Under the pieces are notes generated by a model. That model was not told the DNA's origin. It searched no databases and saw only the letters and a list, made by a program, of their open reading frames with translations. Positions 8,417 to 29,734 of a DNA stretch of 30,560 bases are shown here, piece after piece. Within the stretch, counting starts at the first letter, position 1. Each line of letters starts with the position of its first letter. The position numbers were made by a program, and so were the translations under genes. The DNA comes from Promethearchaeota archaeon (GTDB taxonomy: Archaea; Asgardarchaeota; Lokiarchaeia; Sigyniarchaeales; SOKP01), in contig JAHLWH010000088.1 of assembly GCA_019058015.1 (NCBI GenBank), forward strand, positions 1 to 30,560. The letters run 5' to 3'.

Positions 8417-9748
8417 TTAAAATTCAATTTTTGGAATAATATCCTCTTCTTTACGCAATGGTTTGTATTTAAAGAGCCGACGTGATTCGCTGTCCTCCAG
8501 CACTAGATTAGATCCGCCGCCATGGACCATACAGTATGGGTCAAGTATACCTATAGGGACGCTATACTGCCTAATGAATCCACGACCACCCATAGTTCGA
8601 AAACAGTGTACAGCTGCCTCAAAAGCTAATTCTGATGCAGTAACTTTTAAACCCATTGAATGTTGAGCCATTAATTTTGAGCTTCCCAATTCTGGATGTT
8701 TGTCCATTTCTCTCGCGTAATTAAATAATGCTGCAATTAATAAATTTAACTCACGAATATTTTTAGAAATAGGAAATCGAATAACTTGATATTGGTGTAG
8801 CTTTCTCTCAAATTGTTTTCTCTGAAGAGCGTATGTATGTGAATATAATAGTTTCTTCATTGCGTCACCAAGCGCTTCTGCGCTAATGACAAGGCGTTCT
8901 TCTGTGAGCTGGTGGAACATTATATCCATACCTGAACCTTCTAGCATATTCTCTTTAGGAATTTCTACTTTATCAAATATTAAACGACTTACAAATGCAT
9001 CCGTCATTCCGTATGTTCTTACTCTACTCGCTTTAAAATTCTCTAACTGTTGATTTTCAGTGTCAACAATAATTGCTCCGATTGGGCCTTTATTAACTCG
9101 ACCGTATAAAACTAAATATTTACAAATCATACCATTTGTTATAAAGACCTTTTTACCTTTTGCAATAACTTTATCTCCTTGGGTTTGGAGATTTAATTCC
9201 ATTCTTGCGATATCACTACCAGCATTAAATTCGGTCATAGCGGAAGCACCAACATCTCCATCCCTTGCAACAGGAACTAAGAATTTTTCCCATTGATATT
9301 CATTTGCTTTATAAGAAACGGGATTACAATATAATGTTCCTCCTGCTAGTCTCCCCATTTCAATACTCCAGTTCCCTGCTATATATTTTTCGCTTGTTTC
9401 TGACCATCTTCCACCACATAAAGCAAAAGCGATGAGAGCATTCCTCATTATCCTTCCAACTTCGTATTTTTCAGGATATAGAATTGTACTATAATATCCC
9501 TTCTCTGCCAATTTTTTCATTATTTTAATTACTATCTCTCTTTTTTTATCTTGAGTTGGTTCCTCCACAAGATAATTTAATTCTTCCAAAATCCTTAAAT
9601 CTTTATCAAGTTCTTTTTCTAAGAAATCATAAAAAGCAACTAAAAATTCCTTTTCTTGCACGTTTAATAATGGGCTATTTAATAAGTCTAATTCTGGGAC
9701 ATATTTTTGTATTTGAATTGGTTTAAACTCTCTTAATCTTGTATCCAT
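8417..9748 (-). CDS. Acyl-CoA dehydrogenase (divergent)
   Basis: AMTE..AGSD, G.K.FITNG, EERL, R.QF, MGG.GF. Confidence 0.9.
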   Translation of the reverse strand: MDTRLREFKPIQIQKYVPELDLLNSPLLNVQEKEFLVAFYDFLEKELDKDLRILEELNYLVEEPTQDKKREIVIKIMKKLAEKGYYSTILYPEKYEVGRIMRNALIAFALCGGRWSETSEKYIAGNWSIEMGRLAGGTLYCNPVSYKANEYQWEKFLVPVARDGDVGASAMTEFNAGSDIARMELNLQTQGDKVIAKGKKVFITNGMICKYLVLYGRVNKGPIGAIIVDTENQQLENFKASRVRTYGMTDAFVSRLIFDKVEIPKENMLEGSGMDIMFHQLTEERLVISAEALGDAMKKLLYSHTYALQRKQFERKLHQYQVIRFPISKNIRELNLLIAALFNYAREMDKHPELGSSKLMAQHSMGLKVTASELAFEAAVHCFRTMGGRGFIRQYSVPIGILDPYCMVHGGGSNLVLEDSESRRLFKYKPLRKEEDIIPKIEF

Positions 9749-9885
9749 AATGATTTACACGTTTTTTTATTACTTATAAATAAATAAGGTTGATTTTAAG
9801 ATACCATTATATAAAACATATATAAAAATTAAAATTTAATTCTAAAAAGAAAAACTAAATGAAAAAAAGAAGAATAACTTTTTTA

Positions 9886-12282: not shown

Positions 12283-12621
12283 TTTAATTCACTAAAAATC
12301 GTCAAATTTTTATTTTTATTTAATAGATTAAATAAAACTATATATTTAACAGAATAAAAAATTATCGAAGATAATTAATAATTTGATTTATAGATCAAAA
12401 ATTGGTTGAAGACAAAAGAGTTTTTCCTTACCTAGAAAAAGAATATTAAATTTATCAATAAAATTTTTGCCAAGTAACGCGTGAAAAGAAAAATCTTCTG
12501 AAAAAGCAGCATGAATTAGATGTTAAATGAAATTTTAAAATTGAATATAAATTTTTGCTCATCTCTTCATACTAACTTGGATAGAAAAAAGTATGAAAAA
12601 AAAAGTATGAAAAAGAAATTA

Positions 12622-13215
12622 TTAAAAAGTAAAGTTATCTGGTAGTTCTGATTCGGATGTTCCTACTGGAACCCACGAGATATCCATAATTGTGTAAGTT
12701 GGTTTTTTAGTTTGAAAGATTGGTACTACTCGCATACCGATCTTTGGTTCACCTACTGAAAGATAACCCATAAAGATTGTGCATACATCTTCAAATTCCA
12801 CATTAATAAATTTAATTGGCTTTTTTAATGTATTAAAGGCGCCTGATCGTTCAGTAATTATAAAAGAGTGTATCATTGCCGTTTTCTTTGCTATATCAGT
12901 TATATCTATTACCGTATTTTTTCTAAGACAATCTGGACAATAAATTCTGAATGGCATAAATATGGAATCTTTTGAATCACATTTAGGATTATCACATCTT
13001 GAAGCCATTAATTTTCCTTTACTAAGTGATTCAAAAAATATTGCTTCTCCGCCATAGCTATGAATATAAGTCATGTCTCGTGGATTAGTTATTCCACATA
13101 GTTTTCCATTATCATCAAATATAGGTGTGTTTGGCTCTATTATATGAAATTTACCTTTAATTTTGTATCTGCCATTTTTTACGGAAACCCGTCCAATATC
13201 ATTTTCGCTTTTCAT
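12622..13215 (-). CDS. DUF35-type Zn-ribbon/OB-fold protein (thiolase partner)
   Basis: FF..L..GKL.A.RC....C...F.PFR..CP.C and IGMRV..F; starts 6 nt after the thiolase stop. Confidence 0.88.
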   Translation of the reverse strand: MKSENDIGRVSVKNGRYKIKGKFHIIEPNTPIFDDNGKLCGITNPRDMTYIHSYGGEAIFFESLSKGKLMASRCDNPKCDSKDSIFMPFRIYCPDCLRKNTVIDITDIAKKTAMIHSFIITERSGAFNTLKKPIKFINVEFEDVCTIFMGYLSVGEPKIGMRVVPIFQTKKPTYTIMDISWVPVGTSESELPDNFTF

Positions 13216-13221
13216 GATCTT

Positions 13222-14643: not shown

Positions 14644-14936
14644 TTAAACTCATCTTTTGTATTTTTTTATTGGTTTTTTATAGTAATTGGTTTAATTAAG
14701 GATTATATTAAAATTAATTAGATTAAGATGATTATTTATTTTTCTGATTTCATATCGTTTCAATCGCTTAATTTAATAAATCGTTCTAAATTCTTGATAT
14801 TGACAAATTTTTATTCTGTTATAATAAGATTTGTATTTTTAGATGAGTGAATTTAATTGTAAAACTAGAATCTTATATCTTATCTAATAATTAAATAATT
14901 ATCAATATTCAATAAAAACAAAAATGAACGGTTAAA

Positions 14937-16472
14937 ATGGTTGATGTAGACACTTTTTTTTGGTGGAGTGATGAACAGAAAGAATTTGCGAAAAAAGTTG
15001 CTCAGTTTGTAGAGGATAATATAGAGGAAGCAGAATATTATTTTTGGAAGCAAAAATTCCCTCATTCAATAGTGAAAAAAGTTGCAAAAGAAGGTTTTTT
15101 TGGACCTGGCGTTCCAAAAAAGTATGGTGGGTTGGAATTGGGAGCCACAGGTGGGTGTATTGCAGCCGAACAATTAGGAAGATTATATGCAGTTGGACAT
15201 GTCTTCACAGTATCGATGTTGGCTGGATTAGAACAAATTTTAAGATTCGGTACAGAAGAGCAAAATAGGATGTGGCTTCCCTCTATTGCAGATGGCTCGG
15301 AAATAGGGGCGGTATGTATTTCGGAACCATTTGCAGGGTCAGACGCGGCAAATATTATGACAACTGCTACTAAAGATGGAGACGAGTGGGTTTTAAACGG
15401 TAAAAAGAGAATGATAACTGCTGCTGGAGTTGCTGATAGATATTTTATATATGCTAAAACCAGCGACGATCCAGAGGATCGAAAGCAGTACGCGCATATA
15501 ACCAGTTTTGTGGTCAAGAAAGGCACTCCGGGATTTAGTCTCGAAAAGATAAATCCGCTCATGGGTTTCGATAATGCCCCTAATGGTTATCTAGATTTTG
15601 ATAACGCCAGGATCCCTGATTTCAATAGAGTTGGTGAAGTAGGGAAAGGATGGGCCGTTATGATGGCAGGTTTAAATTTTGAGCGGTTGATTGGTTCTGC
15701 AGTTTTAATGGGCGAAGTAAAGGAGATCATTCAGTTTCTCTTCCATTATACTAAGCGCAGAATTCAATTTAATAGGCCCATTAATCGCAACACGAACATT
15801 CAGTTTGACATCGCTGATATCATCACTAGATACAAGATGGCGAAGCTATTTTCATATCACACTGCTTATCAACTCGATTCAGGTATGGAGCCAATGATTG
15901 AAGCGTCAATCGCGAAGATGATGAATACTGAATATCTAGTAGAAATTACGAGAAAAGCTTTACAGATTTGCGGTGGTGACGGGCTTACGAAATTTTATCC
16001 CCTCGAGAGAGTGTATAGAGAAGCGAAAATAGGTGAAATAGTCGCTGGAACTACTGAAATCCAAAAATTGATTATATATCGCTTTTCAGCAATGCTTCCG
16101 AGGTGGAATGTCCCTATAAAATTCAGATGGAACGATGAGGTAAATGCTCCTTTAATGTCAAAGAGAGATTCCAGGTTTAAAGGTTTAGAAATTAACGAAG
16201 AAAATTTATTAAAAGTTATTGCGCATGATTATAAGATAAATCCAGGAATTTATATGACTTTAGATGATGTTAGAGAAGATATTGGGGGAAGTAGAGTGAA
16301 AATAAAGCAGGGTATTGAATCTCTTGAAAATCAAGGGTTGATTGTTTGTCATCGGGATCGAAGCGGAAAGATTGGTCTTGTTAAGGCAACATACAAAGGA
16401 CTTTCAAAAGCCTTTCCAAAAGATTATTATAGATGGTTTCCTGCTTGGTATGATGAAGCAGACAAGTTTTAA
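14937..16472 (+). CDS. Acyl-CoA dehydrogenase (isovaleryl-CoA DH-like signature) with a ~125-aa C-terminal extension
   Basis: ISEP.AGSD, LNG.K..IT, LNFERL, R.QF, ALQI.GG.G, ERVYREAK..EI.AGT.EIQK. Confidence 0.92.
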   Translation: MVDVDTFFWWSDEQKEFAKKVAQFVEDNIEEAEYYFWKQKFPHSIVKKVAKEGFFGPGVPKKYGGLELGATGGCIAAEQLGRLYAVGHVFTVSMLAGLEQILRFGTEEQNRMWLPSIADGSEIGAVCISEPFAGSDAANIMTTATKDGDEWVLNGKKRMITAAGVADRYFIYAKTSDDPEDRKQYAHITSFVVKKGTPGFSLEKINPLMGFDNAPNGYLDFDNARIPDFNRVGEVGKGWAVMMAGLNFERLIGSAVLMGEVKEIIQFLFHYTKRRIQFNRPINRNTNIQFDIADIITRYKMAKLFSYHTAYQLDSGMEPMIEASIAKMMNTEYLVEITRKALQICGGDGLTKFYPLERVYREAKIGEIVAGTTEIQKLIIYRFSAMLPRWNVPIKFRWNDEVNAPLMSKRDSRFKGLEINEENLLKVIAHDYKINPGIYMTLDDVREDIGGSRVKIKQGIESLENQGLIVCHRDRSGKIGLVKATYKGLSKAFPKDYYRWFPAWYDEADKF

Positions 16473-16624
16473 CATTACTTTTTATCTTTTTTTTATTTTT
16501 AGTATATATATTATAATTTTCAAATATATTAAAAGAGCTTTAGAACCTTTTTAATTCATAAAAAATTTATAAAATAAATCAATAAATTCTAATTATTTCT
16601 TTTATCAATAAGTTTTTCATTTGA

Positions 16625-17617
16625 GTGAATGATTTGGAACATAACGTTGAAAACAAAACCGAAGATAAGAAAAGATATCTTAGTATAGATGTATTTAAAG
16701 GATTGACCATTGTATTAATGGTTTTTGTAAATTCAGTCCAATTATTTGATAGTGTTCCTGCTTGGACTAAACACGCAGGAGATTATGGACTTACCTATGC
16801 AGATCTTATTGCTCCATTCTTTGTTTTCATGATGGCACTCAATTTTAAAACATCATTTCAGCGTCGATTAGAACAAAATGGAAGGTTAAAAGCATATATT
16901 CACTTTATTCGGAGATATTTAATACTAATTGGAGTTGGACTTCTAATGAGCATTAATGAAGATATGGGAGTTATTTATTTTAGATGGGGCACACTGCAAG
17001 TGCTTGGTATATCGGGTCTTATATTATTACCATTGATTGAATTAAGACCAGAGATAAGGATGATTTTTGCATGTGTAGGACTGGTTTTATATCAAATTCT
17101 AATAGAAACCGATGTTAGTGAAATAATATATGATGGAGTTGAAGGTGGAATTATTGGCTCACTTTCTTGGGGTATAATAATGATTTTATCTTCTGTTATA
17201 GCAGAAGGATTAGTTAAAAGAAAAACTAATATATATTTTCTGTTAGGGGGTATAATTTGCACAATTTTAGGTATTAGCACACATTTTATCTGGGGAATAA
17301 GTAGGGCATATGTATCTAGTCCGTATGTTTTAATAAGTGTTGGAATTGCTTCCTTAATATTTTATGGAATATATTATATCTTCGAAATTTGGGGTAAGGA
17401 CTATAAATTTTCACAAAAAGATAATTTTTTAAGTGTTATGGGGAAAAACGCCTTTATGTTGTTTCTTTTGCATTGGCTTTTATTTATTATTACATATTTA
17501 ATACTACCATCAGACACTCACTTCTTAATTGTGTTTATTTGTGCTTTTATAAATATTTTTATCATTTGGATAATTGCTTTTATTATGAATCGAGAAAAGA
17601 TATTCATTATAATTTGA
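16625..17617 (+). CDS. Heparan-alpha-glucosaminide N-acetyltransferase (HGSNAT/NagX)-like membrane acyltransferase
   Basis: R..SID.F.G....LM.FVN....H...GLT.AD...P.F; G.LQ; multiple TM segments. Confidence 0.8.
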   Translation: MNDLEHNVENKTEDKKRYLSIDVFKGLTIVLMVFVNSVQLFDSVPAWTKHAGDYGLTYADLIAPFFVFMMALNFKTSFQRRLEQNGRLKAYIHFIRRYLILIGVGLLMSINEDMGVIYFRWGTLQVLGISGLILLPLIELRPEIRMIFACVGLVLYQILIETDVSEIIYDGVEGGIIGSLSWGIIMILSSVIAEGLVKRKTNIYFLLGGIICTILGISTHFIWGISRAYVSSPYVLISVGIASLIFYGIYYIFEIWGKDYKFSQKDNFLSVMGKNAFMLFLLHWLLFIITYLILPSDTHFLIVFICAFINIFIIWIIAFIMNREKIFIII

Positions 17618-17741
17618 TTGCTGTATAAGCTTTTAATTTTCTTTTCTCTAAAGAATTATACTTACTTAATTTATTTGAAAAATAATAAAAAATAACAATT
17701 ATTAATTCGTTTACTGAAAAGAATTATGTTAATATTTAATT

Positions 17742-18985: not shown

Positions 18986-19477
18986 ATGGAATTTCAAGCA
19001 CATCAAATAAAAGATATACTTAAAATTGATTATAGGTATACTATGGGAGGACAATCTAAGTTTTTCATAGAGTTGATGAATAATAAAAAACTATTAGGTA
19101 CAAAATGTACTAAATGCGGAAAGATTTGGATGCCTCCAAGAATAAATTGCTCGGAATGCTACGAACCAGCGGAGTGGGTCGAGATGAAACAAACCGGAAC
19201 AATAGATGTTAGCACTATTGTATGGTATACTACATCTGCTTTTATTAAGGCGATTCCCTACGGAATTGGTTTTATTAGATTAGATGGTGCAGATACAGCG
19301 ATGCTTCAAGGAATATTTTCCGAGAGTTTAATTCCATCCAAAGTTAAGAAAGGAAAAAAAGTAAGAGCAGTATTTCAAAAAGAAAGGGAAGGAAAAATGA
19401 CAGATTTTTTCTTTGTGCCAGAAGATGAATATGAATCTTGGATAATAAAATCAGAATATGAGGGGGGTTCAGAATGA
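18986..19477 (+). CDS. DUF35-type Zn-ribbon/OB-fold protein
   Basis: GTKCTKCG..W.PPR..C..C, G.I......W, PY..G.I.LDG; starts 2 nt after the thiolase. Confidence 0.92.
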   Translation: MEFQAHQIKDILKIDYRYTMGGQSKFFIELMNNKKLLGTKCTKCGKIWMPPRINCSECYEPAEWVEMKQTGTIDVSTIVWYTTSAFIKAIPYGIGFIRLDGADTAMLQGIFSESLIPSKVKKGKKVRAVFQKEREGKMTDFFFVPEDEYESWIIKSEYEGGSE

Positions 19478-19839
19478 ACGAAGCTAGAATAGAATTTGAA
19501 AAAATAATTGATTTAATAAATAAAACACCAAAATCAAAACAAATTTTCGAATCAGAGGATTGGAGATATACTATTCAATTTAAATTGGATAGAGAAGATG
19601 ATCCATTTTTTCTCGTTGTCAAGGATGGAATTGGAAAAGTTATTGTAGGTGAAGATATTAATGTGGATATGTTAATCACTGGCGATAATAAGAGTATTAT
19701 AAAAACTAGTCAAGGGAAAGGTGATTTCACTCATGGAATTAGTCGTGAAGAGATTATTGTTGAAAAAGGAAAAGTATTTGAACTTATGCGAGTTAGTCGA
19801 GCAATTGCTGCTGCATTAAAAGAATCGAAACAAAAATAA
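19474..19839 (+). CDS. SCP2 sterol/lipid-binding domain protein
   Basis: TIQF.L.....F.L.VKDG...V..GE....D..I.G pattern, 121 aa; ATGA overlap with the DUF35 gene. Confidence 0.75.
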   Translation: MNEARIEFEKIIDLINKTPKSKQIFESEDWRYTIQFKLDREDDPFFLVVKDGIGKVIVGEDINVDMLITGDNKSIIKTSQGKGDFTHGISREEIIVEKGKVFELMRVSRAIAAALKESKQK

Positions 19840-19880: not shown

Positions 19881-20720
19881 CTATTCAGAATTATCCGCTC
19901 TCATTTGTTTTAATTCTTTTGAAAGTTTTTTAAAACCTTTTATAAGTTTCATGACCGAAAAGCCCCTGAAAGACTCACCGTTTTTTTTACATGTTGGCAA
20001 AGCATACGGAATAACAGTGCCACAACTTTTTTCAATATCCGTCATTACGTACTTCTTAACTAACTCCATTTCACGCTCATGGGTTTTCTTGTCTTTCCAA
20101 GCTTCAATTACTTGTGCTTTGTATAAATTTGTATTTATCATGCCAGGGAAAAATGAATTTATCTTAATATCGTTTTCATTCTTTTTAAATTCCTCCGCTA
20201 GGCATTTGGAAAAAGCAAGGACACCTCCCTTAGACGCCGAGTAAATAGTCATGTGTTCTACTGGTCTGTTGGCACCTCCACCCGCTAGTGTGATTACCCG
20301 TCCATATGTTTGCTTGATCATGTATGGTAATGCCGCTGCAACTGAATTAATGACTCCTATTAAATTAATTCCGATCATAGTTTTTGCATCAGAGTTTACT
20401 TTATCTAAAGAGAGATATTGAAATGGACCGTATGTTAAGTTCACACCAGCATTCGCTACTAAAATGCGCACCGAGCCAAAAGATTCAATAGTTTTGTCTA
20501 CGAGTGATTTAACTGCTATAGGATCTGAAACATCACACGGGGCTCCGATTACCGAGTCTCCAAATTTTTCTTTAAATTCTGCAAGGGTTTGATTAACTTT
20601 AGGCTCTGTTCGAGAGCAAATTGCAACTTTACATCCTTCCATAAGAAAAAGTTCAACAATTTTTTTCCCGATTCCGCTTGTGGAACCAGTTACAATTGCA
20701 GTTTCGTTTTCCATTTTCAC
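19881..20720 (-). CDS. Short-chain dehydrogenase/reductase
   Basis: TGSTSGIG, CDVS, NAG, YSASK, PG.I.T. Confidence 0.93.
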   Translation of the reverse strand: MKMENETAIVTGSTSGIGKKIVELFLMEGCKVAICSRTEPKVNQTLAEFKEKFGDSVIGAPCDVSDPIAVKSLVDKTIESFGSVRILVANAGVNLTYGPFQYLSLDKVNSDAKTMIGINLIGVINSVAAALPYMIKQTYGRVITLAGGGANRPVEHMTIYSASKGGVLAFSKCLAEEFKKNENDIKINSFFPGMINTNLYKAQVIEAWKDKKTHEREMELVKKYVMTDIEKSCGTVIPYALPTCKKNGESFRGFSVMKLIKGFKKLSKELKQMRADNSE

Positions 20721-20911: not shown

Positions 20912-22201
20912 ATGAGTCTACAAGAATGTTTGGCAAGTCGTAAAGATTGTTCGGGTGAAGGTCGATCCTTACTGCTGAAGGAAGTTTTGGATATTTGTAA
21001 TTCCACACATCAAGCGGCACCTTCAAAGTCTCTATTTATTGTGCTGCCTGATGGGGATGATTATACGGGTGGCATATATAAGTATAATAAAAAGGAGTTT
21101 AATTTAATAACAGATAAAGAAAAAACAAAATATAGCATAGAACTCTATCCAGAACTGCTTTTTAAAGATAAAATAGAGTTAAAGGAATTGATTCGAGTAG
21201 GACTTATTTGGCAATATCTCTCATTAAAAGTGGGAAGTATGGGGCTTGGAGTCTCACAACGTGCAATAGCTCCTAAAAAAATTAATAAGCTCCTTAACAA
21301 AGTCACAAATCAAAATTATGTTTTTTTGTATTCGGTGGCAGTCCGAGAACGCGATCGTCAAACTTTAATTGAAGATTCATCAGAACCTCTTCAGAAAGAA
21401 CTAGTGGAAGGAATCCTTCTCCTCGATACTCCAGAATGCTATAAAAATCGCGCAATTTATGAAAATCGTTATCAAGGTGTTCCGTTAGATGCTGCAATTT
21501 TCAATCAAATTGAAAAGAAAATTCCAGATATGACATCATTGTATGAACTTTCCCAACTACTCTGGGCATGCCAAGGAGAAACAGATCATACAACTCACGG
21601 TAACCGGGATGTTTTAGAAAAGAATGGTTATGGTCGTGTCCATGCATCAGGTTGTGCGGGATATGCCGTTTACCCGATTGTTATTGTAGATGACCTCGCC
21701 AGTTTGCCAAAAGGGGCCTATCTGTACAACTCTCTTGGGTTTTCCGCATTAAATAGATGGGTTCGTGTAAATGAAAGGTTAAATTATGATCATTTATTAC
21801 AAAAATTTACCTCTAATAAAGCCAAAGCAGATATTGAAAAGGAATTTGGGATTAAATTTTCAAACTATACAATTTTATTATGTATTGATAGAAAAAAACC
21901 GTGTTCAGGGTTTGCGCATAGCAAAATTGGAAAAGTATTTATGAACACCAAATACTGGGGGGAAGTTGAGGCAGGAATGGCACTGGCAGGATTACAACTC
22001 CAAGCCAATGCTTTAGGTTTCCATTGGCAAAAAAAAATATTATCAAATCCAGACGATCCCAAATACAGAAAGTTATTTAACCTTGATTCTGCTGAACAAT
22101 CAATTAATAAAATGGCATCAAATTTAGTGAATCTGCCAAAAAATGAGAAATTATCGCTTAAAGGTCATTTAGTACCAACAGTAATATTTTTCCTTCAATA
22201 G
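20912..22201 (+). CDS. Tandem-domain nitroreductase-fold (SagB/ThcOx-like) protein
   Basis: SL..CL..R at the N-terminus; second domain with ELSQLLWACQG, R..AS....YP and EAG.....L.L.A.ALG. Confidence 0.65.
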   Translation: MSLQECLASRKDCSGEGRSLLLKEVLDICNSTHQAAPSKSLFIVLPDGDDYTGGIYKYNKKEFNLITDKEKTKYSIELYPELLFKDKIELKELIRVGLIWQYLSLKVGSMGLGVSQRAIAPKKINKLLNKVTNQNYVFLYSVAVRERDRQTLIEDSSEPLQKELVEGILLLDTPECYKNRAIYENRYQGVPLDAAIFNQIEKKIPDMTSLYELSQLLWACQGETDHTTHGNRDVLEKNGYGRVHASGCAGYAVYPIVIVDDLASLPKGAYLYNSLGFSALNRWVRVNERLNYDHLLQKFTSNKAKADIEKEFGIKFSNYTILLCIDRKKPCSGFAHSKIGKVFMNTKYWGEVEAGMALAGLQLQANALGFHWQKKILSNPDDPKYRKLFNLDSAEQSINKMASNLVNLPKNEKLSLKGHLVPTVIFFLQ

Positions 22202-22271
22202 AGATCTTGGTATATGAAAGATTTTACATATATCAAAATTATGATATAATAAAATAAAAAATATTATTTTA

Positions 22272-22361
22272 TTATTTATGAAGCTTACCCTTAGTATTTT
22301 CGTAAAAATCATGTGATTCTGGATTTCTCAGAGCCCCTCGATTTGCAACTACCGTTCAATG
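22272..22361 (-). pseudogene. Relic 3' end of an acetoacetate-CoA ligase paralog
   Basis: Translates H*TVVANRGALRNPESHDFYENTKGKLHK*, versus HGMAIANRGALRNPESLDFYEKVKNKLK* at 24508-24594. Confidence 0.88.
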
Positions 22362-22447
22362 AGTGATTTAAGTATCAATAATATTTGCTTTTTTATTTGA
22401 AACTTAGTAGAGAATATTTATATAAATCTTTAAATTAAGAATAGACT

Positions 22448-23281
22448 ATGAACTTTGAAAATTTAATTTATGAAGAAAAGGATCAAGTGGCTTGGGTTAT
22501 ACTTAATCGACCTGAAGTCTTAAATGCATTAAGCATGAAACTTTCTGATGAGTTAGTTGCTGCTATAGAAATTGTAAGGCAATCTACAAAACTTAAATTT
22601 TTAGTTATTAAAGGAGCAGGTAACAATTTCAGTGTTGGAGATGACATTAAGGAAATGATTAAATGGGGCGATGCTAATGATATAACACGAAGAGCGAGAT
22701 ATTATCAAAATATGGCTAATCAGCTTGAAGAGTTGGATAAAATCACAATTGCCGCTGTAGATGGATATGCTGTAGGTGGTGGCTTAGAAATTACTATGGT
22801 ATGTGATTTTGTAATTGCCACTGAGCGCTCAAAATGGGGTATGCCAGAGGTGGATGTCGGAATAACTCCCGGATGGGGTGGGACCACAAGATTAGCTCGA
22901 CTTATAGGTCGAAGGAGAGCTAAAGAAATTAATCTTATTGGTGCACTTCATTCCGGAAAAAAGGCGGTGGATTGGAATTTGTGGAACCGGGTTGTACCAA
23001 ACGATCATCTTGATGATGAGGTGGAACGGTTATTGGAGGTACTTAAATCTAAAAATCAGCAAGGATTACGTCAATTAAAATTTATAATTAATCGCGGAGT
23101 AGAATGTGATTTGTATACTGCTCAGGGTTTTGAAGTTTTATCTGCTGGTTTAACTGGCGCTGTTAGTGGGATGTGGAAAATAAAAGATGCTGATCAGGGT
23201 AAGGGTATAATCGGCTTCACTGATAAGGCTGGTCTATGGCAAACAAGAAGACGAATGGCAAAAGACTTTTGGGTTGATTAA
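22448..23281 (+). CDS. Enoyl-CoA hydratase (crotonase family)
   Basis: LNRP..LNAL, FS.G.DI, AAVDGYAVGGGLE, MPE..VG..PG.GGT.RL; both catalytic Glu present. Confidence 0.93.
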   Translation: MNFENLIYEEKDQVAWVILNRPEVLNALSMKLSDELVAAIEIVRQSTKLKFLVIKGAGNNFSVGDDIKEMIKWGDANDITRRARYYQNMANQLEELDKITIAAVDGYAVGGGLEITMVCDFVIATERSKWGMPEVDVGITPGWGGTTRLARLIGRRRAKEINLIGALHSGKKAVDWNLWNRVVPNDHLDDEVERLLEVLKSKNQQGLRQLKFIINRGVECDLYTAQGFEVLSAGLTGAVSGMWKIKDADQGKGIIGFTDKAGLWQTRRRMAKDFWVD

Positions 23282-23399
23282 AAGATTTTAATCATAGATT
23301 ATTTCCCTAAATACTATTATTTTTTTTATAATTTTAATTTAGATAGAGATATGATTTTTAAAAAATTAATAAAAGAAAATATTTTATTTGATGATGTGA

Positions 23400-24242
23400 C
23401 TAAACTTTTAAAATTCGGTTTTCTTTTAGCCAATCTATTCCAAAGTCTACTATAGCTCGTAATGATATTAATCGAGCTTCTGCCAAACCAATTTTACCAG
23501 GTCTATAATTAATTTTAGACTCAAAATCCTTTCCAAGTTGCTTAAAATCATCACTATTATGATCCAAACCTTCCCATTCTACCCATTGTCTCTGATTATT
23601 CACAGTCATTGCACATCCATTCGAAATAAATTTTTTTCCAGGGAAATCACTTCGATATTCTGCAAGATGCAATGAAGAGTTATTCTCATGGGTAACACCC
23701 ACTAATAATATTTGTCCATCAAGATCATAAAGACGGGAAATAGGAGAATCTTCCCCCAAATCTGCTGTTAATTTATGATTTTCAGTAATAAATTTTGCAT
23801 ATTTACCCCACGCAGCGAATGATGATATGGGATGATTACTCCGTAAGACATTAGACCAATTTCTAAAAGTCTCTGCAATAACTCCCATTACTCTTGTAGG
23901 TGTTATTTTCGGCTTGAAGGCGGGCATCTCTTTTCTAATTGTATTCCACCAACTTTTAGGTACAGGAGGATTTTCCCATCGAGACGGGTCTGAGTTATCG
24001 CTAGTAAATGTTGGCATTATTAATGTACTCTCTGAGGTTAGAACTTGCATTAGAGCTTTAATTACTGATACTGGTCCTCCAACAGTCCAACCTATATTAC
24101 TTAGTGAACTATGCAGTATTATTATAGATCCCTGCTCAACACCGAGTGTTTTAAAATCACGTTTTAATGAAGTTATAGTGTTAGGATATTTTGTTATTTT
24201 AACAACATCGCCTTCAGAGATCTTTTTCATTTCAATTTCCAT
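23400..24242 (-). CDS. AAC(3)/YokD-family N-acetyltransferase
   Basis: HSSLS.IG.V.GG, MPTF, MG..AE.FR, RS.HP..SF.A.G, LG..SP, N.S.HLAE. Confidence 0.92.
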   Translation of the reverse strand: MEIEMKKISEGDVVKITKYPNTITSLKRDFKTLGVEQGSIIILHSSLSNIGWTVGGPVSVIKALMQVLTSESTLIMPTFTSDNSDPSRWENPPVPKSWWNTIRKEMPAFKPKITPTRVMGVIAETFRNWSNVLRSNHPISSFAAWGKYAKFITENHKLTADLGEDSPISRLYDLDGQILLVGVTHENNSSLHLAEYRSDFPGKKFISNGCAMTVNNQRQWVEWEGLDHNSDDFKQLGKDFESKINYRPGKIGLAEARLISLRAIVDFGIDWLKENRILKV

Positions 24243-24507
24243 AAGATATTAAATAACTAATTTAGTTAATTATTTTTTCCTTACAGCAATTATTATATAG
24301 AATACTATTAACCTTAGATCAATAGATAAATAGATTTTTCTATTAGAATTATTGTTAGAAGTAACTTTAAAGACAAATTACACTCACACGATAAAAACCA
24401 CCGACTAATAAAGTTTAAGAAGTTATCAGCAGATCAATTGTTTATAGACTTAAATCTATTAGAATTTAAAAAAAAATAAGAAGTAAAAAATATTGAGAAA
24501 TACTTCT

Positions 24508-26511
24508 TTATTTAAGCTTATTTTTTACTTTTTCGTAGAAATCTAAAGATTCTGGATTTCTAAGTGCCCCTCTATTTGCAATTGCCATTCCATGTAAGAT
24601 CTTTGTCACAGCAATCTCGACCTTTTTATTACTAAATGTATATGGTATATCTGGTGTTTCCATTATCAGTGCAGGCACATGTCTAGGGGAAGTCCTTTCT
24701 CTCAATGTTTTTTTAATTTTATCCTTAATCCCGTCAGTTAATTTATAATTCTCTGCCATTTGAACGAAAAGTACTATGTATTTAAATGTTCCATCTTTAA
24801 GATCTTTAAGACCAATAGCTAGACTATCTGCAATTTCAGGGAGTTGTTCAATAACATTATAAATTTCTGCAGTTCCAATACGAACACCTGATGGTTTTAA
24901 AACTGCGTCAGAACGACCCCAGAAGGTGATACCACCAGTATCGCTATGAATTACTATGTAATCACCATGTCTCCATACATTTTTCCCAGTATCTTTAAAG
25001 TGGTCAAAGTAAGCTGCTTTATATTTTGTCATATTATCATCATCATCATCCCAGAAATATATAGGCATTGAGGGTGCAGGTGCTTCACATACGAGTTCAG
25101 CCTGCTCATCAAGAACTGGTTCTGCATTATCGTTATAAGATTTAACTTTCATTGCTAGTGCAGGCCCTTGTAATTCACCGGAATAGACAGGAAGAATTGG
25201 GATAGCACCAGCAAAGCAGCCATTAATATCCGTTCCACCACTTATTGAATTAAAATATAGATCTTTCTTGATCTCATTATAGACATATTCAAATCCTTCT
25301 GGCGAAAGAGTGGAAGCAGTTTGAGATATAACTCTTAAGGCACTCAAATCATACTTTTCAGTTGGTTTAGCGTTAATACCCATTAGATAATGAAGATAGG
25401 ATGCACTTGTCCCAAAAATTGAAATTTTATGCTTTTCCATAAGTTCAAACATTCTAAGGGGATCTGGATATAGGGGATTACCATCATAAAGGAAGATTGT
25501 TGCACCTACCGCTAATGAACTTATCAACCAATTCCACATCATCCATGAGGGCGCAGTAATATAGATAATTACATCACTTCGTTTTAGATCTGTTGAGAGA
25601 ATAAGTTCATTTAAATGTTTAACAAGAACTCCACCTGCTCCTTGTACCATACATTTCGGCTTACCAGTTGTTCCCGAGGAAAACATAACATAAACTGGAT
25701 GGTCGAAAGGTAATTGTTCGAATTGGATTTCTGGATTTTCTTCTTTAGAGATAAAATCGTCCCAATGGACCCCATTAGGAATACTAATAATATCAGGTTT
25801 ATTATCAGAGATATATGAAACAATGATAACCTTTTCTATTGATGGAATAGCCTTAACTACTTCTTTAATATTAGGAATTATGTTAAAAACCTTATCTCTA
25901 TAATAGTACCCATCAACTGTGAATAGTACCTTGGGTTCAATTTGACCAAATCGATCAATTACAGCACTAGGTTGTAATTCAGCACCACAAGAAGCCCAAA
26001 TTGCACCAATGCTAGTAGCCGCGAGCATTGCGATGGGAGTTTCTATTAAGTTTGGTATATATGATACGACTCTATCTCCAATTTTAACCCCATTTTCACG
26101 GAGTGATTTCGCTAAACGAGCTACAACCTTATTTAATTCAGCATATGTCATTTTTTTAGTTACTTTTGTTTCACCTTGAAAGACAAACGCTAATTGATTA
26201 TCTTTAAATTTCAACATGTTTTCGGCAAAATTTAATTTTGCTCCGGGAAACCATTTTGTACCAGGATATACGCTTAAATCCTCAACTACCTTTTCATATG
26301 GTTGGGACGCTATTATTCCACTAAATTTCCACATCGCATCCCAGAAATCTTCTATTTTTTCGATACTCCAATCATATAGCTTTTTCCCGGTAGAGATGTT
26401 TTGATTATATTTTTTATTAATAAATTCGATAAATCGAGTAGCTTCGGCGTTTTTTATCCAATTCTCTGAGGGTTCCCATAATTTCTTTCGTACTGCTGTT
26501 ATTATTAACAC
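24508..26511 (-). CDS. Acetoacetate-CoA ligase (start codon uncertain)
   Basis: LW.PS, WFPGA.LNFAEN, FSSGTTG.PKC, WMMWNW, SISGGTD..GCF, W.HGD, GRSD..L.P.GVRIGT.EIY, KK.E, NPE.L. Confidence 0.93.
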   Translation of the reverse strand: MLIITAVRKKLWEPSENWIKNAEATRFIEFINKKYNQNISTGKKLYDWSIEKIEDFWDAMWKFSGIIASQPYEKVVEDLSVYPGTKWFPGAKLNFAENMLKFKDNQLAFVFQGETKVTKKMTYAELNKVVARLAKSLRENGVKIGDRVVSYIPNLIETPIAMLAATSIGAIWASCGAELQPSAVIDRFGQIEPKVLFTVDGYYYRDKVFNIIPNIKEVVKAIPSIEKVIIVSYISDNKPDIISIPNGVHWDDFISKEENPEIQFEQLPFDHPVYVMFSSGTTGKPKCMVQGAGGVLVKHLNELILSTDLKRSDVIIYITAPSWMMWNWLISSLAVGATIFLYDGNPLYPDPLRMFELMEKHKISIFGTSASYLHYLMGINAKPTEKYDLSALRVISQTASTLSPEGFEYVYNEIKKDLYFNSISGGTDINGCFAGAIPILPVYSGELQGPALAMKVKSYNDNAEPVLDEQAELVCEAPAPSMPIYFWDDDDDNMTKYKAAYFDHFKDTGKNVWRHGDYIVIHSDTGGITFWGRSDAVLKPSGVRIGTAEIYNVIEQLPEIADSLAIGLKDLKDGTFKYIVLFVQMAENYKLTDGIKDKIKKTLRERTSPRHVPALIMETPDIPYTFSNKKVEIAVTKILHGMAIANRGALRNPESLDFYEKVKNKLK

Positions 26512-26910
26512 CTCAAATTTTTTTATTTTAACATTTTGATAATTTCTAACTGATAATTAATTGAATAATTCTATTTACGATTCTTTTTTATTTAATTTTT
26601 CTTAAAAAGCTTCAAAATCAATAATTAAAGTTGATTAAAATATTCAATTATATTTAGGGATCTATGTTTTTTATATAGATAGTAGTAATTTTTCCAAATT
26701 TTATTATAAATTATCATATTTTCTTTGTAATTCTTCAACTATCGTTTAAATTTTTAATAAAATTTGAAAACTTTTGAATTAGGTTTTCCCATTTTCATCA
26801 AAAGGATATTTTTTTGTGAAATTTTTGGATAAGAATAAATCTAATCATTAATTACCTATTTTGAAAAAATTTAATAACTTTTTATTAATGAAATGAGGTT
26901 AAATTGCAAT

Positions 26911-27918
26911 ATGGAAATGAAAATTTTAAAAGAAGGAAGTGGAGAAATATTTTGCAAAAATACACCTTCTGAAGTTCGGGAATGGACAAGGAAAAATAAG
27001 ACAAGAGCTTTAATAGATAAAAGAATGCCCATTAAAGAAGCAATAAAAAAGTTCGTTCATAACGGAGATTATTTAGCTATTGGAGGATTTGGACATATTA
27101 GAATTCCGATGGTATCAATATATGAAATTGTAAGACAGCACATTAAGGATTTATCTGTGGCGGGACACACAGCAGTTCAAGATATTGATATGTTAATGGC
27201 TGGAGGTTGCGTTAAAAATGTAGATATTGCTTATGTTGTGGGATTTGAGCTCCGGGGACTTTCAGGAGTTCAGAGAAGGTTATTTGAAAGTGGAGAAGTT
27301 AAAAAAACCGAATACACAAATGGAGCAATGGCATATCGACTTCGCGCAGGCGCTCAAGGAATCCCTTTTATTCCTGTAAAGGTAATGCTCGGAACAGATA
27401 CAATGTTACATTCGCCTGGAAAGGTTGTGAGATGTCCGTTTACTGGTGAAAAAGTATTATTATTACCTTCATTAAATCCTGATGTATTAATAATGCATGC
27501 TCATCGAGCAGATATATATGGAAATGTACAAATTGATGGACATATAGTAAAGGATGATTTACAAGCAAGGGCTTCAAAACGTGTGATAGTAACAGTTGAA
27601 GAAATAATTAGTGATGACTCAATTAGAGCGGACCCAGGTAAGACTATTATCCCGTTTTATATGGTCGATGCTGTAATAGAACAACCATGGGGATCACATC
27701 CTGGAAATATGCCATACAAATACTATTTTGATCATGAATTTACTGAAGAATATTTAGCAGCGGGTAGAGATAAGGATCTGAAAGTTATAGAGAGATGGTT
27801 GGATGATTGGGTTTATTCTTTTGAAGATTTTGATGAATATCTAACAAAATTAGGTTCTAAAAGATTGTACCGATTAAAAGATGACGAATTTTTAAGAGTG
27901 AAAAATGGAGGGAGATAA
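26911..27918 (+). CDS. Family I CoA-transferase subunit A (glutaconate CoA-transferase GctA-like)
   Basis: EAI..FV..GD....GGF, AGA.G.PF.P, GTD, CPFTG, PDV...HA.RAD..GN, P.GSHP. ATG 26911 preferred because a GAGGT RBS lies at 26895-26899; the ORF track starts at 26893. Confidence 0.9.
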   Translation: MEMKILKEGSGEIFCKNTPSEVREWTRKNKTRALIDKRMPIKEAIKKFVHNGDYLAIGGFGHIRIPMVSIYEIVRQHIKDLSVAGHTAVQDIDMLMAGGCVKNVDIAYVVGFELRGLSGVQRRLFESGEVKKTEYTNGAMAYRLRAGAQGIPFIPVKVMLGTDTMLHSPGKVVRCPFTGEKVLLLPSLNPDVLIMHAHRADIYGNVQIDGHIVKDDLQARASKRVIVTVEEIISDDSIRADPGKTIIPFYMVDAVIEQPWGSHPGNMPYKYYFDHEFTEEYLAAGRDKDLKVIERWLDDWVYSFEDFDEYLTKLGSKRLYRLKDDEFLRVKNGGR

Positions 27919-27921
27919 AAA

Positions 27922-28698
27922 ATGAGTAGAAACTATACATTAAGAGAGTTAATGGCTTGCGTTGCTGCAAAACAATTAGAAGATGGAAAGGCTGTAGCTG
28001 TAGGAACGGGATTACCTTTAGTTGCAACCATGCTTGCGCAACAAACTCACGCGCCAAATTTGGTTATTATTTTTGAAGCTGGAGGTATTGCTCCACAATT
28101 ACCAATACTCCCCATATCAGTTGGAGATTCACGAACTATACATAAAGCACTTTGTACTACAACTTTAATTGATATTATGGATACCATTCGTAGAGGTTAT
28201 GTCGATTATGCCTTCTTGGGAGGGGCTCAAATAGACAGTTATGGAAATTTGAATTCTACTATGATTGGAGATGATTATGAAAAACCAAAAGTGAGATTTC
28301 CTGGTTCTGGAGGAGCAAATGATTTTGGATCACTCGCATGGGAAACTCTTATAATAATGGATCGACATAGTCCAAGGAGATTTGTTAAAAAAGTAGACTT
28401 TATTACAACACCAGGTTATTTATATGGTCCAGGTGCCCGAGAAGAAGAAGGTTTATCAGAAAATACAGGTCCATCACGTGTTATAACAGATCTATGCTTA
28501 TTTGATTTCGAACCAGAATCCAAGAGAATGAGATTGATCGCCTGTCATCCAGGAGTTACTGTTGAGGATGTTATAAAAGCAACGGGGTTTGAAATTATAA
28601 TAGCGGACAATGTAAGAACAACCGATCCCCCCACCGAAGAAGAATTAAGGTTATTACATGAAGTAATTGATCCTTTAGGATTTGTCTTTAAAAAATAA
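27922..28698 (+). CDS. Family I CoA-transferase subunit B (GctB-like)
   Basis: GTGLP, FEAG (catalytic Glu), FLGGAQID.YGNLNST, PGSGGAND, FV.KVDFIT.PG, HPGV. Confidence 0.92.
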   Translation: MSRNYTLRELMACVAAKQLEDGKAVAVGTGLPLVATMLAQQTHAPNLVIIFEAGGIAPQLPILPISVGDSRTIHKALCTTTLIDIMDTIRRGYVDYAFLGGAQIDSYGNLNSTMIGDDYEKPKVRFPGSGGANDFGSLAWETLIIMDRHSPRRFVKKVDFITTPGYLYGPGAREEEGLSENTGPSRVITDLCLFDFEPESKRMRLIACHPGVTVEDVIKATGFEIIIADNVRTTDPPTEEELRLLHEVIDPLGFVFKK

Positions 28699-28819
28699 AT
28701 CTTTTTTTTTAGAAAATTATCTAAAATGCGAAATAAAAAATTTTAAAATTCCAAAAATTAATATTATTTTAATTCAATTAAATTAGAACCAAAAAAAAGT
28801 AAATAAAAAGTGTTTTAAA

Positions 28820-29734
28820 ATGGAAGTATATGAAAATAATCCAGAAATTAAATTGGTAATAAGTGCAGCGTTAGCAGGTGCAGTAACTAGAAAGGATCAA
28901 AATCCTGCAGTTCCTTATTCACCAGAAGAATTTGGAGATGAAGCTAAAAAATGCTATGAAGCGGGGGCCGCAATAGTTCATATCCATGCAAGAGATGTAG
29001 CACAGGGGGGTATTGCCACAGCAAATTTGGAAATTATTAAAGCCACAGTTGAAAATATAAAGCAAAAAGCACCAGACGTTATAATTAACTTGAGTTCCGC
29101 AATTAGCGCGGTAGTTACTGATCGGGAACGAATAATGCCCGTGAGAAAATTCAAACCTCCTTTAGCGTCATTAAACACTAATTCAATGAATTTTTCGGTC
29201 GGAGATTTTAAGGCAGGAAAAGTACTTATGGGTGCTGGAAATATTTTTAATAACTCGTTTAGCACAATTCAAAATTTTGCCAAACATATGAGAAAAGCGC
29301 AGACCAAACCTGAGATGGAAATTTATGATTTAGGGGGAATGTATAATATGCTATTTCTCAACAAACAAGAAGGTATGTTTGAAAAACCTTTACATTTTCA
29401 GTTTGTTTTCGGTGTTCTTGGTGGAATACCCTTCAGCCCTCAGAATTTAGGGCGTCTACTGGACTTAAAGCCCCCAGGAGCAACATGGAGCGTATGTGGA
29501 GTTGCTAGGCAACAATTTCAGGCAGGTATGTGTGCTGCTGCATGGGGTGGGCATATTCGAGTTGGCTTAGAAGATAACATCCGGAATATCAACCGTGATT
29601 TAGCCAAAGGTTCATGGGAACAGGTTGCTTGGGCTAAAAAAGTGGCTGGAGATGCTGGAAGAGAAATTGCTCAAGGTGCAGAGGCAAGAAAAATATTCAA
29701 CCTTTTACGGGAAGATGTGGATTTATCTGGTTAA
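28820..29734 (+). CDS. Beta-keto acid cleavage enzyme (BKACE / 3-keto-5-aminohexanoate cleavage family)
   Basis: NP.VP..PEE, AGA.IVHIHAR, ASLN..SMNF, KPE.E.YD, QFV.GV.GG, GGH.RVGLED. Confidence 0.92.
   Translation: MEVYENNPEIKLVISAALAGAVTRKDQNPAVPYSPEEFGDEAKKCYEAGAAIVHIHARDVAQGGIATANLEIIKATVENIKQKAPDVIINLSSAISAVVTDRERIMPVRKFKPPLASLNTNSMNFSVGDFKAGKVLMGAGNIFNNSFSTIQNFAKHMRKAQTKPEMEIYDLGGMYNMLFLNKQEGMFEKPLHFQFVFGVLGGIPFSPQNLGRLLDLKPPGATWSVCGVARQQFQAGMCAAAWGGHIRVGLEDNIRNINRDLAKGSWEQVAWAKKVAGDAGREIAQGAEARKIFNLLREDVDLSG

Follow-up and report, generated by a model that had tools for sequence, protein, structure and literature searches.

Thiolase-like/DUF35 pairs without the nucleophilic cysteine in an acyl-CoA-metabolism neighborhood of a Lokiarchaeia genome

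What might thiolase-fold proteins do that have lost the nucleophilic Cys? This question is raised by contig JAHLWH010000088.1 of a Promethearchaeota archaeon (assembly GCA_019058015.1; Lokiarchaeia, Sigyniarchaeales, SOKP01), a stretch of 30,560 nucleotides that is referred to here as the window. It encodes two such proteins, Thl1 and Thl2, each next to a DUF35 protein (DUF35a and DUF35b, respectively). Both pairs lie in a span of 21 kb together with genes for two acyl-CoA dehydrogenases (ACAD1 and ACAD2), a crotonase, and a beta-keto acid cleavage enzyme (BKACE). An earlier interpretation made from the letters alone (the sequence-only reading) had taken the span as one pathway built on Ltp2-type aldolases. 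We favor a less specific interpretation, to which we give somewhat less than an even chance, namely, that Thl1-DUF35a and Thl2-DUF35b are heteromeric, non-thiolytic catalytic complexes for C-C chemistry that work in an ACAD/hydratase/BKACE context. Their active-site sequences suggest that they probably catalyze a different C-C reaction on acyl-CoA and are mislabeled in databases.

In HMMER alignments, the nucleophile loop AAC(A)SG of the archaeal thiolase 6ESQ fell on TGGATGG in both Thl1 and Thl2, so that Gly takes the place of the Cys. The position of the HDCF motif read HDAF in both proteins when they were aligned to 6ESQ, 7YVY, and BbsB (7PXP), and the GH loop read GC(M/G)HAVGATG, with its His retained. 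Judged from these alignments, both catalytic Cys are gone from Thl1 and Thl2, while both His (of the oxyanion-hole and activation loops) are kept. The closest full-length relatives among representatives of 50%-identity clusters all carried GG(A/G)(T/S)G, and Cys-bearing proteins with ACxSG and HDCF, the motifs found in most of the 52 Cys-bearing representatives, appeared only farther out. Since the nearest cluster representatives share the Cys-less state, it is not a sequencing accident. A FastTree phylogeny of 94 rows, from which four representatives with garbled motif regions had been removed beforehand, placed Thl1 and Thl2 in an entirely Cys-less clade of 25 rows (local support of 93, which is not a bootstrap value), together with two tandem paralogs from contig C117 of the same genome. 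Across 33 sequences of the Thl1 family with 34 to 86% identity, residues G102, G103, H336, D337, A338, N383, G386, G387, H393, S450, and H451 were invariant. All of them fall in the loops that bear the catalytic residues of thiolases, which argues for a working pocket and not for decay. Tyr161, Tyr165, Tyr301, and Tyr318 are invariant as well. Where Cys-bearing relatives read HN(V/L/I)GG, the Thl1 subclade carries SHAG or HSHAG with a conserved His. Thl1 scored 663.5 bits with the equivalog profile NF004982 (PRK06365, thiolase domain-containing protein), just under the cutoff of 695, which was exceeded in none of 14 control genomes; an ESM Atlas lookup returned generic thiolase clusters only. 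The genome as a whole has ten full-length thiolase-fold genes (three Cys-bearing genes of the SCP-x/archaeal type, three classical ones, and four without the Cys) and, additionally, two thiolase-fold fragments and one weak match of 544 aa.

DUF35a missed the Pfam cutoff (E = 0.038) and matched the solved DUF35 protein 3IRB with an E value of 1.1e-5 over residues 55 to 162. Its zinc-ribbon residues C74, C79, C93, and C96 were invariant among 35 ortholog sequences, and these matches mark DUF35a as a DUF35 protein with a predicted zinc ribbon and OB fold. Like DUF35b, it is a free-standing open reading frame (ORF) and not a domain of a MaoC hydratase. Since solved thiolase/DUF35 complexes are heteromeric, Thl1 and Thl2 would each be expected to form a heteromer with its DUF35 partner. 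A predicted Thl1 + DUF35a complex gave an ipSAE of 0.58 (best control, 0.01), with contacts agreeing between runs by at least 95% and a partner pLDDT of at least 86. Of 157 solved complexes, 116 attained the mark applied to such predictions, as did 2 of 215 mismatches; both of these mismatches, but only 18 of the 157 complexes, had scores of 0.60 or below. The prediction was graded as weak support and, since solved thiolase/DUF35 complexes exist, its score shows likeness at most.

To map the spread of this pair, one genome per species was scanned, and 472 stretches were found to encode Thl1 relatives. The best 80 of these 472 stretches were 77 to 98% identical and belonged to records of Promethearchaeota and of Thor- and Hermodarchaeota as well as to records titled Marinimicrobia/Neomarinimicrobiota, the FCB group, and Pseudomonadota and a 2.6-Mb Desulfarculia chromosome. 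Protein-database names of close homologs included Thermoplasmata/Thermoplasmatota, Cytophagales, Planctomycetes, Gammaproteobacteria, and others, and the proteins were mostly labeled acetyl-CoA C-acetyltransferase or thiolase domain-containing protein. So high an identity between domains of life implies horizontal spread plus strong constraint. For synteny counts, record titles and protein variants were used to sort the best 80 stretches, which gave 59 archaeal and 21 bacterial loci; these loci are kin and not independent events. DUF35a directly followed Thl1 on its 3′ side in every locus with room on the contig (56/56 archaeal and 20/20 bacterial). ACAD1 was located divergently upstream of Thl1 in 49 of the 54 archaeal loci with room, with four more having it downstream, and 33 of 47 had a BKACE ortholog no more than 3 kb downstream of Thl1-DUF35a; the corresponding number for both genes in Bacteria was 0/21. 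Downstream sequence of 8.5 kb or more was available for 40 archaeal loci; among these, BKACE was present in 30, a tandem pair of thiolase-like genes with DUF35 genes in 29, a crotonase in 20, and a gene resembling those of short-chain dehydrogenases/reductases (SDRs) in 8. A crotonase directly adjoined Thl1-DUF35a in 6 of 16 annotated bacterial loci, in which the remaining neighbors varied. The classical 3HCDH-type family of 3-hydroxyacyl-CoA dehydrogenases was not recognized in the annotated neighborhoods. The arrangement in the Loki relatives is, then, a cassette of a divergent ACAD1, a Cys-less thiolase-like/DUF35 module, and a convergent BKACE, often accompanied by the tandem pair, two DUF35 genes, and an enoyl-CoA hydratase. 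One locus in a record titled Pseudomonadota (L062, 2338-8438) encodes a crotonase, an ACAD, and a large subunit of the methylmalonyl-CoA-mutase family with a B12-binding subunit, followed by Thl1-DUF35a; this single locus gives a hint of acyl-CoA substrates that are branched or rearranged.

A functional link is most strongly supported by the persistence of the cassette in genomes without Thl1. In genome searches in which up to eight candidates were scored per genome, ACAD1 was detected in 28 of 40 genomes of the window's family, with no detection in the other sampled families (29/201 overall), and Thl1 was detected in 15 of the 40 (18/201 overall). On full search, five genomes had no Thl1 ortholog. 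Eight ACAD1 loci were fetched from genomes without a detected Thl1, the eighth of which begins at a contig end. In all seven loci with room, ACAD1 was divergent from a tandem pair of Cys-less thiolase-like genes with DUF35 genes, and a BKACE ortholog closed the cluster. In G004, which belongs to the same genus, the exact place of Thl1-DUF35a, between a glycyl radical enzyme gene and ACAD2, is taken by two other thiolase-like genes in tandem (418 and 386 aa) and two DUF35 genes (183 and 158 aa; L095 2780-6236, G004:C8). Because the cassette persists in this way, the conserved unit is ACAD1, some nucleophile-less thiolase-like/DUF35 module, and BKACE, and the thiolase-like modules are interchangeable or additive. 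The linkage of a Cys-less pair to an ACAD and a hydratase, noted in the sequence-only reading, was thus borne out by ACAD1 in archaea, also where Thl1 is lacking, and by the crotonase in Bacteria. The same reading had named conserved linkage in related genomes as a check, and such linkage was found for the ACAD1/thiolase-like/BKACE subcassette but not for the whole 21 kb. Contig C117 of the window's genome (L103, 5936-10292) encodes two Cys-less thiolase-like proteins and a protein of 332 aa in which two DUF35 units are fused; a crotonase gene lies divergent to these genes, and an SCP2 gene is close by.

The second module comprises Thl2, DUF35b, and an SCP2-like protein. Thl2 orthologs with 85 to 97% identity were counted in 19 of 41 genomes in all; the family of the window contributed 17 of its 24 other genomes and a second family 1 of 11. 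DUF35b adjoined Thl2 in all 14 loci that were fetched; an SCP2-like gene (at least 40% identity) followed in nine of these, and an NMO/FabK-like ortholog (at least 40% identity) lay within the locus in nine. Acyl-CoA ligases, a crotonase, and flavin amine-oxidase-like genes recurred in the vicinity. In the window, DUF35b starts 2 nucleotides past the Thl2 stop codon, and the SCP2-like ORF overlaps the DUF35b stop codon by 4 nucleotides. Thl2-DUF35b-SCP2 is a translationally coupled operon that is conserved within the family. The name SCP2, given to the small protein in the sequence-only reading, holds for its ortholog in L090, which passes the Pfam profile with 27.1 bits, while the window copy remains below the cutoff (18.5 versus 21.3 bits; E = 0.0027). 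SCPx proteins consist of a thiolase fused to SCP2. The second module resembles eukaryotic SCPx in joining an SCP-x-type thiolase fold and an SCP2-like protein in one operon; it differs in having two separate genes with a DUF35 gene in between and a thiolase-like partner that is without the catalytic Cys. At another place in the genome (L106 3797-5430, G000:C18), an SCP2 gene is located directly 5′ of a Cys-bearing thiolase gene, like a split SCPx. Thl2 orthologs were interrupted in 5 of the 14 fetched loci (L093, L094, L100, L101, and L102). Directly past HDAF, about 16 codons that include an in-frame TAA are inserted in both copies of G024 (one of them at L093 9394-10665, G024:C14), and in three further genomes the reading frame changes near residues 147 to 178. 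The interrupted copies may be pseudogenes, assembly errors, or genes with small inserts.

How could such complexes act? The conserved pocket of Thl1 and Thl2 would still bind and polarize an acyl-CoA thioester, and without the nucleophilic Cys there would be no thiolysis through an acyl-enzyme intermediate. With covalent thiolysis impossible, a non-covalent C-C cleavage or condensation (retro-aldol or Claisen-like) becomes likely, which would use the product of the neighboring ACAD (ACAD1) and hydratase. BKACE and acetoacetate-CoA ligase might then handle the beta-keto-acid/acetoacetate branch. The simplest assumption is a retro-aldol step, which is plausible but unproven and follows the precedent of Ltp2 and Sal as well as a proposal for anaerobic limonene breakdown, in which a thiolase-superfamily enzyme would cleave a tertiary 3-hydroxy-3-alkylglutaryl-CoA (PMC12583861). 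The TcLtp2-ChsH2 and CtSal-Shy aldolases (6OK1; PMC12329534) combine a Cys-less thiolase fold, with Gly at the nucleophile position in CtSal, and an obligatory DUF35 zinc-ribbon/OB partner, and their step comes after those of an ACAD and a hydratase, as proposed here for the window proteins. However, the base of TcLtp2 is Tyr294 of YDHF, with Tyr344 in addition, and Tyr302 and Cys304 of YDCY are catalytic in CtSal (PMC12329534), whereas Thl1 and Thl2 with their HDAF have neither the Tyr of YD(H/C)(F/Y) nor the Sal-type Cys (the third position is Ala). The DUF35 part of these aldolases is, moreover, the C-terminal domain of a MaoC hydratase (ChsH2 or Shy), unlike the free-standing DUF35a and DUF35b. 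Among solved structures, Thl1 matched the archaeal thiolase 6ESQ with an E value of 6.7e-32 versus 8.3e-13 for Ltp2 (6OK1), and Thl2 matched the archaeal 7YVY with 3.7e-52 versus 4.7e-25, so that the match to Ltp2 is much the weaker one. Thl1 and Thl2 thus appear to fall outside the Ltp2/Sal family, which makes it less probable that they are an Ltp2 but not necessarily that they work like one.

Other solved or described systems resemble the window pairs in part. Solved archaeal thiolase/DUF35 enzymes, which are the first match for Thl1 and the second for Thl2, have the same thiolase-then-DUF35 order, the GH His, and the HD-F motif; they differ in their Cys nucleophile and HDCF, where Thl1 and Thl2 have Gly and Ala, and carry out Claisen condensation or thiolysis. 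The benzoylsuccinyl-CoA thiolase BbsAB (7PXP) likewise pairs an HDAF thiolase subunit with a DUF35 subunit within a beta-oxidation-like set of ACAD, hydratase, and SDR, but BbsB keeps the nucleophilic Cys (SACSAG), and the glycyl radical enzyme of the window is dehydratase-like and not fumarate-adding. TbSLP, the SCP2-thiolase-like protein of trypanosomatids, is another thiolase-like protein without thiolase activity; its function is described as unsettled, and an aldolase role has been proposed (PMC12329534). It has YDCF in contrast to the HDAF of the window proteins, and that account of it describes no DUF35 partner.

The full model of the sequence-only reading goes further than our interpretation and is, in our view, distinctly improbable. 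It takes the 21 kb as a single pathway without carboxylation, with Thl1 and Thl2 acting as Ltp2-type aldolases that cleave a tertiary 3-hydroxy-3-methylacyl-CoA of phytanyl, terpenoid, leucine-type, or steroid-like origin into acetyl-CoA and a ketone. The combination of a Cys-less thiolase fold with DUF35, as in Ltp2 and Sal, agrees with it, and so do the linkage to ACAD and hydratase, the Glu in both ACADs at the position used by isovaleryl-CoA dehydrogenase, and the glutaconate type of the CoA-transferase, whose second-best solved match is 5MZW. The proposed cleavage in limonene breakdown (PMC12583861) is a further point in its favor. Against it stand the HDAF motif, the better match of archaeal thiolases, the free-standing DUF35 partners together with the lack of a MaoC gene among the window ORFs, and a gene content of the span that varies even inside the genus. 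Branched or isoprenoid substrates have no direct support in our data. In addition, the tandem paralogs encoded outside the window carry a Tyr at the base position (YDLF and YEPT on C117, YAPF in L090, and YDPF in G004) and appear to be better aldolase look-alikes than Thl1 and Thl2. Alternatively, both proteins might be pseudoenzymes, i.e., their complexes with DUF35 might be non-catalytic acyl-CoA or lipid binders (with SCP2 in the second module) that organize substrates or channel them to ACAD, hydratase, or reductase partners. We consider this unlikely. The loss of both catalytic Cys, the lipid-binding SCP2 partner in the Thl2 operon, and the very high whole-sequence conservation of Thl1, which would fit many binding surfaces, are consistent with such a scaffold, as is the DUF35-mediated multienzyme assembly documented for Saci_1121/1120 of the Sulfolobus fatty-acid synthase complex (bioRxiv 10.1101/2024.07.05.601840). 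But dead enzymes usually lose their catalytic-loop residues, which in this family, except for the Cys, are invariant over 34 to 86% identity, and in some bacteria, e.g., at L072, Thl1-DUF35a stands alone among unrelated genes.

It is highly improbable that the label acetyl-CoA C-acetyltransferase, which the close homologs bear, is essentially right, with the proteins still working as ordinary thiolases or as condensing enzymes in beta-oxidation or in the fatty-acid synthesis of archaea and relying on a different nucleophile or directly on free CoA. The neighboring genes for ACAD, enoyl-CoA hydratase, SDR, and acyl-CoA ligases would suit such enzymes, and so would the reported mean of 3.8 ketothiolase/DUF35 pairs per Asgard genome (bioRxiv 10.1101/2024.07.05.601840). 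The nucleophile is, however, replaced by Gly in every close relative examined, the genome already has six Cys-bearing thiolases (three SCP-x/archaeal and three classical), and for CtSal, which has the same Gly, thiolysis is impossible according to its authors (PMC12329534). We give only a very small chance to a decarboxylase, in which the His pair would decarboxylate a malonyl-type thioester or a beta-keto acid in connection with BKACE. Cys-less ketosynthases decarboxylate, the His pair is kept while the Cys is lost, and BKACE is a conserved neighbor in the Loki relatives; yet no precedent was seen in the thiolase/SCP-x branch, the bacterial loci are without BKACE, and CtSal given malonyl-CoA is reported to have made no acetyl-CoA (PMC12329534). 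Several observations also weigh against the non-thiolytic C-C catalysis that we favor. ACAD1 occurs in more genomes of the family than Thl1 (28/40 versus 15/40 with at most eight candidates scored per genome), and Thl1 is dispensable, as G004, which is 100% complete, has no ortholog. The bacterial loci lack ACAD1 and BKACE (0/21), and the Tyr that is catalytic in the only characterized Cys-less thiolase-fold aldolases is absent from both proteins. The apparent lack of a 3-hydroxyacyl-CoA dehydrogenase is not firm, since the SDR-like genes of 8 of 40 archaeal loci and the SDR of the window could supply this activity.

If the complexes are C-C catalysts of this kind, the Loki cassette of ACAD1, nucleophile-less thiolase-like/DUF35 module, BKACE, and enoyl-CoA hydratase could form an undescribed route, independent of biotin and 3-hydroxy-3-methylglutaryl-CoA lyase, for 3-substituted acyl-CoA or 3-alkylglutaryl-CoA of isoprenoid, leucine-type, or alicyclic origin. 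We regard this extension as improbable. Dehydrogenation would be followed by hydration to a tertiary alcohol, which the thiolase-like/DUF35 complex would split in a retro-aldol reaction into acetyl-CoA and a ketone or beta-keto acid. In an exchange with acetyl-CoA, BKACE would turn the beta-keto acid into a shortened acyl-CoA and acetoacetate, and the latter would be recovered by acetoacetate-CoA ligase. Were this route real, many "ketothiolase/DUF35" pairs of Asgard archaea would not be thiolases, and beta-oxidation and fatty-acid-synthesis inferences drawn from them would be weakened. Several such pairs were reported by Schmerling et al. in 67% of 62 screened Asgard genomes (mean of 3.8 per genome) and were taken as support for fatty-acid synthesis (bioRxiv 10.1101/2024.07.05.601840); the word "cysteine" is absent from the main text of that study. 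Reconstructions of Asgard metabolism, including fatty-acid arguments at the archaeal-eukaryotic transition, count these pairs, and 4 of the 10 full-length thiolase-fold genes in the present genome are without the Cys nucleophile. A description of a Cys-less Asgard thiolase-like/DUF35 family was not found in the literature searched apart from supplements, of which the phylogenies in Figs S32-36 of Schmerling et al. and Table S4 of the Sal paper could be relevant here. The Thl1 family is about 80% identical between Asgard archaea and several bacterial phyla, and it is labeled acetyl-CoA C-acetyltransferase although it is without the residue that defines that chemistry. Ltp2 and Sal, the known Cys-less thiolase-fold enzymes, have an active-site makeup other than that of the window proteins, and a characterized member of the window family would add a third; the cassette offers a concrete handle on a possibly new C-C cleavage route in anaerobes.

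The span cannot be read as the single pathway of the sequence-only reading, as the gene content at this locus differs in L010 and in G004. It is a variable acyl-CoA-metabolism neighborhood with two separately conserved modules. In L010, whose Thl1 is 97% identical, the SDR, SagB-like, and AAC(3) genes had no match at the corresponding place, and the same was true for DUF35a, Thl1, SDR, the SagB-like ORF, and the CoA-transferase at the G004 locus (L095). An ACAD2 ortholog was found at the same place in both, and ACAD2 is divergent from Thl1 in the window's lineage. BKACE adjoins the thiolase-like module in most relatives but lies 15 kb from Thl1-DUF35a in the window, beside the glutaconate-type CoA-transferase and acetoacetate-CoA ligase. 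The cassette was thus rearranged in the window's genus, in which a glycyl radical enzyme gene separates DUF35a from ACAD1. This gene is a lineage-specific insertion that occurred at 2 of the 59 archaeal Thl1 loci (L009 and L010) and at none of the 21 bacterial ones; G004, without Thl1, also has it beside ACAD1.

The glycyl radical enzyme has a GCVE Cys loop and a RIAGYS glycine motif, and its closest solved chain is the B12-independent glycerol dehydratase 1R8W (E = 1.2e-173), followed at a distance by benzylsuccinate synthase 4PKC (E = 9e-80). No activase was found in the window. The genome has five glycyl radical enzymes and three activases, each activase being located on another contig beside another such enzyme; the window enzyme and one on contig C87 are without an adjacent activase. 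An ORF with Fer4 domains (4546-5664) was considered as the missing activase and rejected, as only its C-terminal ferredoxin domains match and the real activases are on other contigs. A Bbs-like fumarate-addition pathway for hydrocarbons, suggested by the place of the enzyme next to an ACAD and a thiolase/DUF35 pair, was rejected on account of the GCVE loop and the far better match of glycerol/diol dehydratases than of benzyl-/alkylsuccinate synthases, and it is also disfavored by the rarity of the enzyme at archaeal Thl1 loci. A role of BKACE in lysine fermentation was rejected, too: its score is below the Kce cutoff, and aminomutase, Kdd, and Kal genes were not seen in the annotated neighborhoods.

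The 24 ORFs of the window were scanned with Pfam and NCBIfam profiles, and the features of the span and its flank are compiled in Table 1.

Table 1. Features of the 21-kb span and its right flank (window positions)
Feature	Position	Strand	Evidence
ACAD1, atypical acyl-CoA dehydrogenase, 443 aa, extended N terminus, EERL	8417-9748	-	Pfam ACAD middle and C-terminal domains only
Glycyl radical enzyme, dehydratase/eliminase class, 798 aa	9886-12282	-	TIGR01774, 755 bits (cutoff 678)
DUF35a, divergent DUF35, N-terminal extension, 197 aa	12622-13215	-	3IRB match, zinc-ribbon Cys
Thl1, SCP-x/archaeal-type thiolase fold, 473 aa	13222-14643	-	Pfam Thiolase_N and Thiolase_C_1
ACAD2, ordinary three-domain ACAD, FERL	14937-16472	+	Pfam/NCBIfam
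DUF5009-like or acyltransferase-3-like membrane protein	16625-17617	+	Pfam DUF5009, E = 2.4e-7
Thl2, thiolase fold, 409 aa	17754-18983	+	Pfam Thiolase_N and Thiolase_C_1
DUF35b, canonical DUF35, 163 aa	18986-19477	+	Pfam OB_ChsH2_C and zf-ChsH2, both passed
SCP2-like small protein	19474-19839	+	Pfam SCP2, below cutoff
SDR, possible 3-hydroxyacyl-CoA or 3-oxoacyl reductase, strain-variable	19881-20720	-	Pfam
SagB/nitroreductase-like ORF, strain-variable	20912-22201	+	TIGR03605, E = 1.9e-9, below cutoff
Crotonase/enoyl-CoA hydratase, both catalytic Glu motifs	22448-23281	+	Pfam, motif inspection
AAC(3)-family N-acetyltransferase, unrelated to acyl-CoA breakdown	23400-24242	-	PF02522, 296 bits
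Acetoacetate-CoA ligase	24508-26511	-	NF002937, 828 bits (cutoff 639); TIGR01217, 798 bits (cutoff 521)
Two-subunit (A + B) family-I CoA-transferase, glutaconate-CoA-transferase-like	26893-28698	+	Pfam/NCBIfam; 1POI, E = 7e-50
BKACE	28820-29734	+	PF05853, 284 bits
NMO/FabK-like flavoenzyme, cut by window end	30138-30560	-	Pfam/NCBIfam

Every gene listed in the sequence-only reading was present, among them the two Cys-less thiolase-fold/DUF35 pairs, and Pfam and NCBIfam profiles confirmed the SDR, acetoacetate-CoA ligase, CoA-transferase, and BKACE; the list had omitted the glycyl radical enzyme, the membrane protein, the SagB-like ORF, and the AAC(3) gene. It had correctly described two ACADs with a Glu of the ERL type. 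Sequence comparison placed this residue in the EERL and FERL motifs, at the catalytic-base site of isovaleryl-CoA dehydrogenase, and Gly or Ala occupies the site of the Glu of the medium-chain acyl-CoA dehydrogenase type in both proteins. The best solved matches of ACAD1 were ACADs and isovaleryl-CoA dehydrogenases. Also as described, the crotonase contains GGGLEI and MPEVDVG, whose Glu positions are presumably the two catalytic Glu of crotonases. The statement that biotin carboxylase and 3-hydroxyacyl-CoA dehydrogenase are missing stood insofar as neither the biotin-carboxylase nor the 3HCDH Pfam family was found among the 24 ORFs, nor was a MaoC domain; it has to be qualified for the dehydrogenase, as the SDR could itself act in this role. 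The earlier observation was real but incomplete, and its interpretation is partly supported in spirit, not in its specifics. 

The closest solved chain of the CoA-transferase is the glutaconate CoA-transferase 1POI; 5MZW, its second match (E = 1.8e-26), was deposited as "Glutaconate CoA-transferase family, subunit A." BKACE stayed below every NCBIfam equivalog cutoff, with 247.7 versus 382 bits for Kce, 205.9 versus 430 for the 3,5-dioxohexanoate enzyme, and 170.9 versus 350 for the 3-oxoadipate enzyme.

Other features were noted in the window as well. ACAD2 has a C-terminal extension of about 125 aa past the ACAD domains (residues ~385 to 511) that is without a Pfam match. The AAC(3)-family gene, found here in an archaeal host, stays below the NCBIfam AAC(3) cutoffs despite its strong PF02522 score. 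A group II intron is located at positions 198 to 1833 (+); it comprises an ORF for a reverse transcriptase/maturase (198-1658) and, past it, a match to Rfam Intron_gpII (1757-1833; 71.6 bits). Upstream of the span, positions 7402 to 8211 (-) encode an Asgard-typical small GTPase of the Ras/Roc family (269 aa), an ortholog of which is present in L009 and L010.

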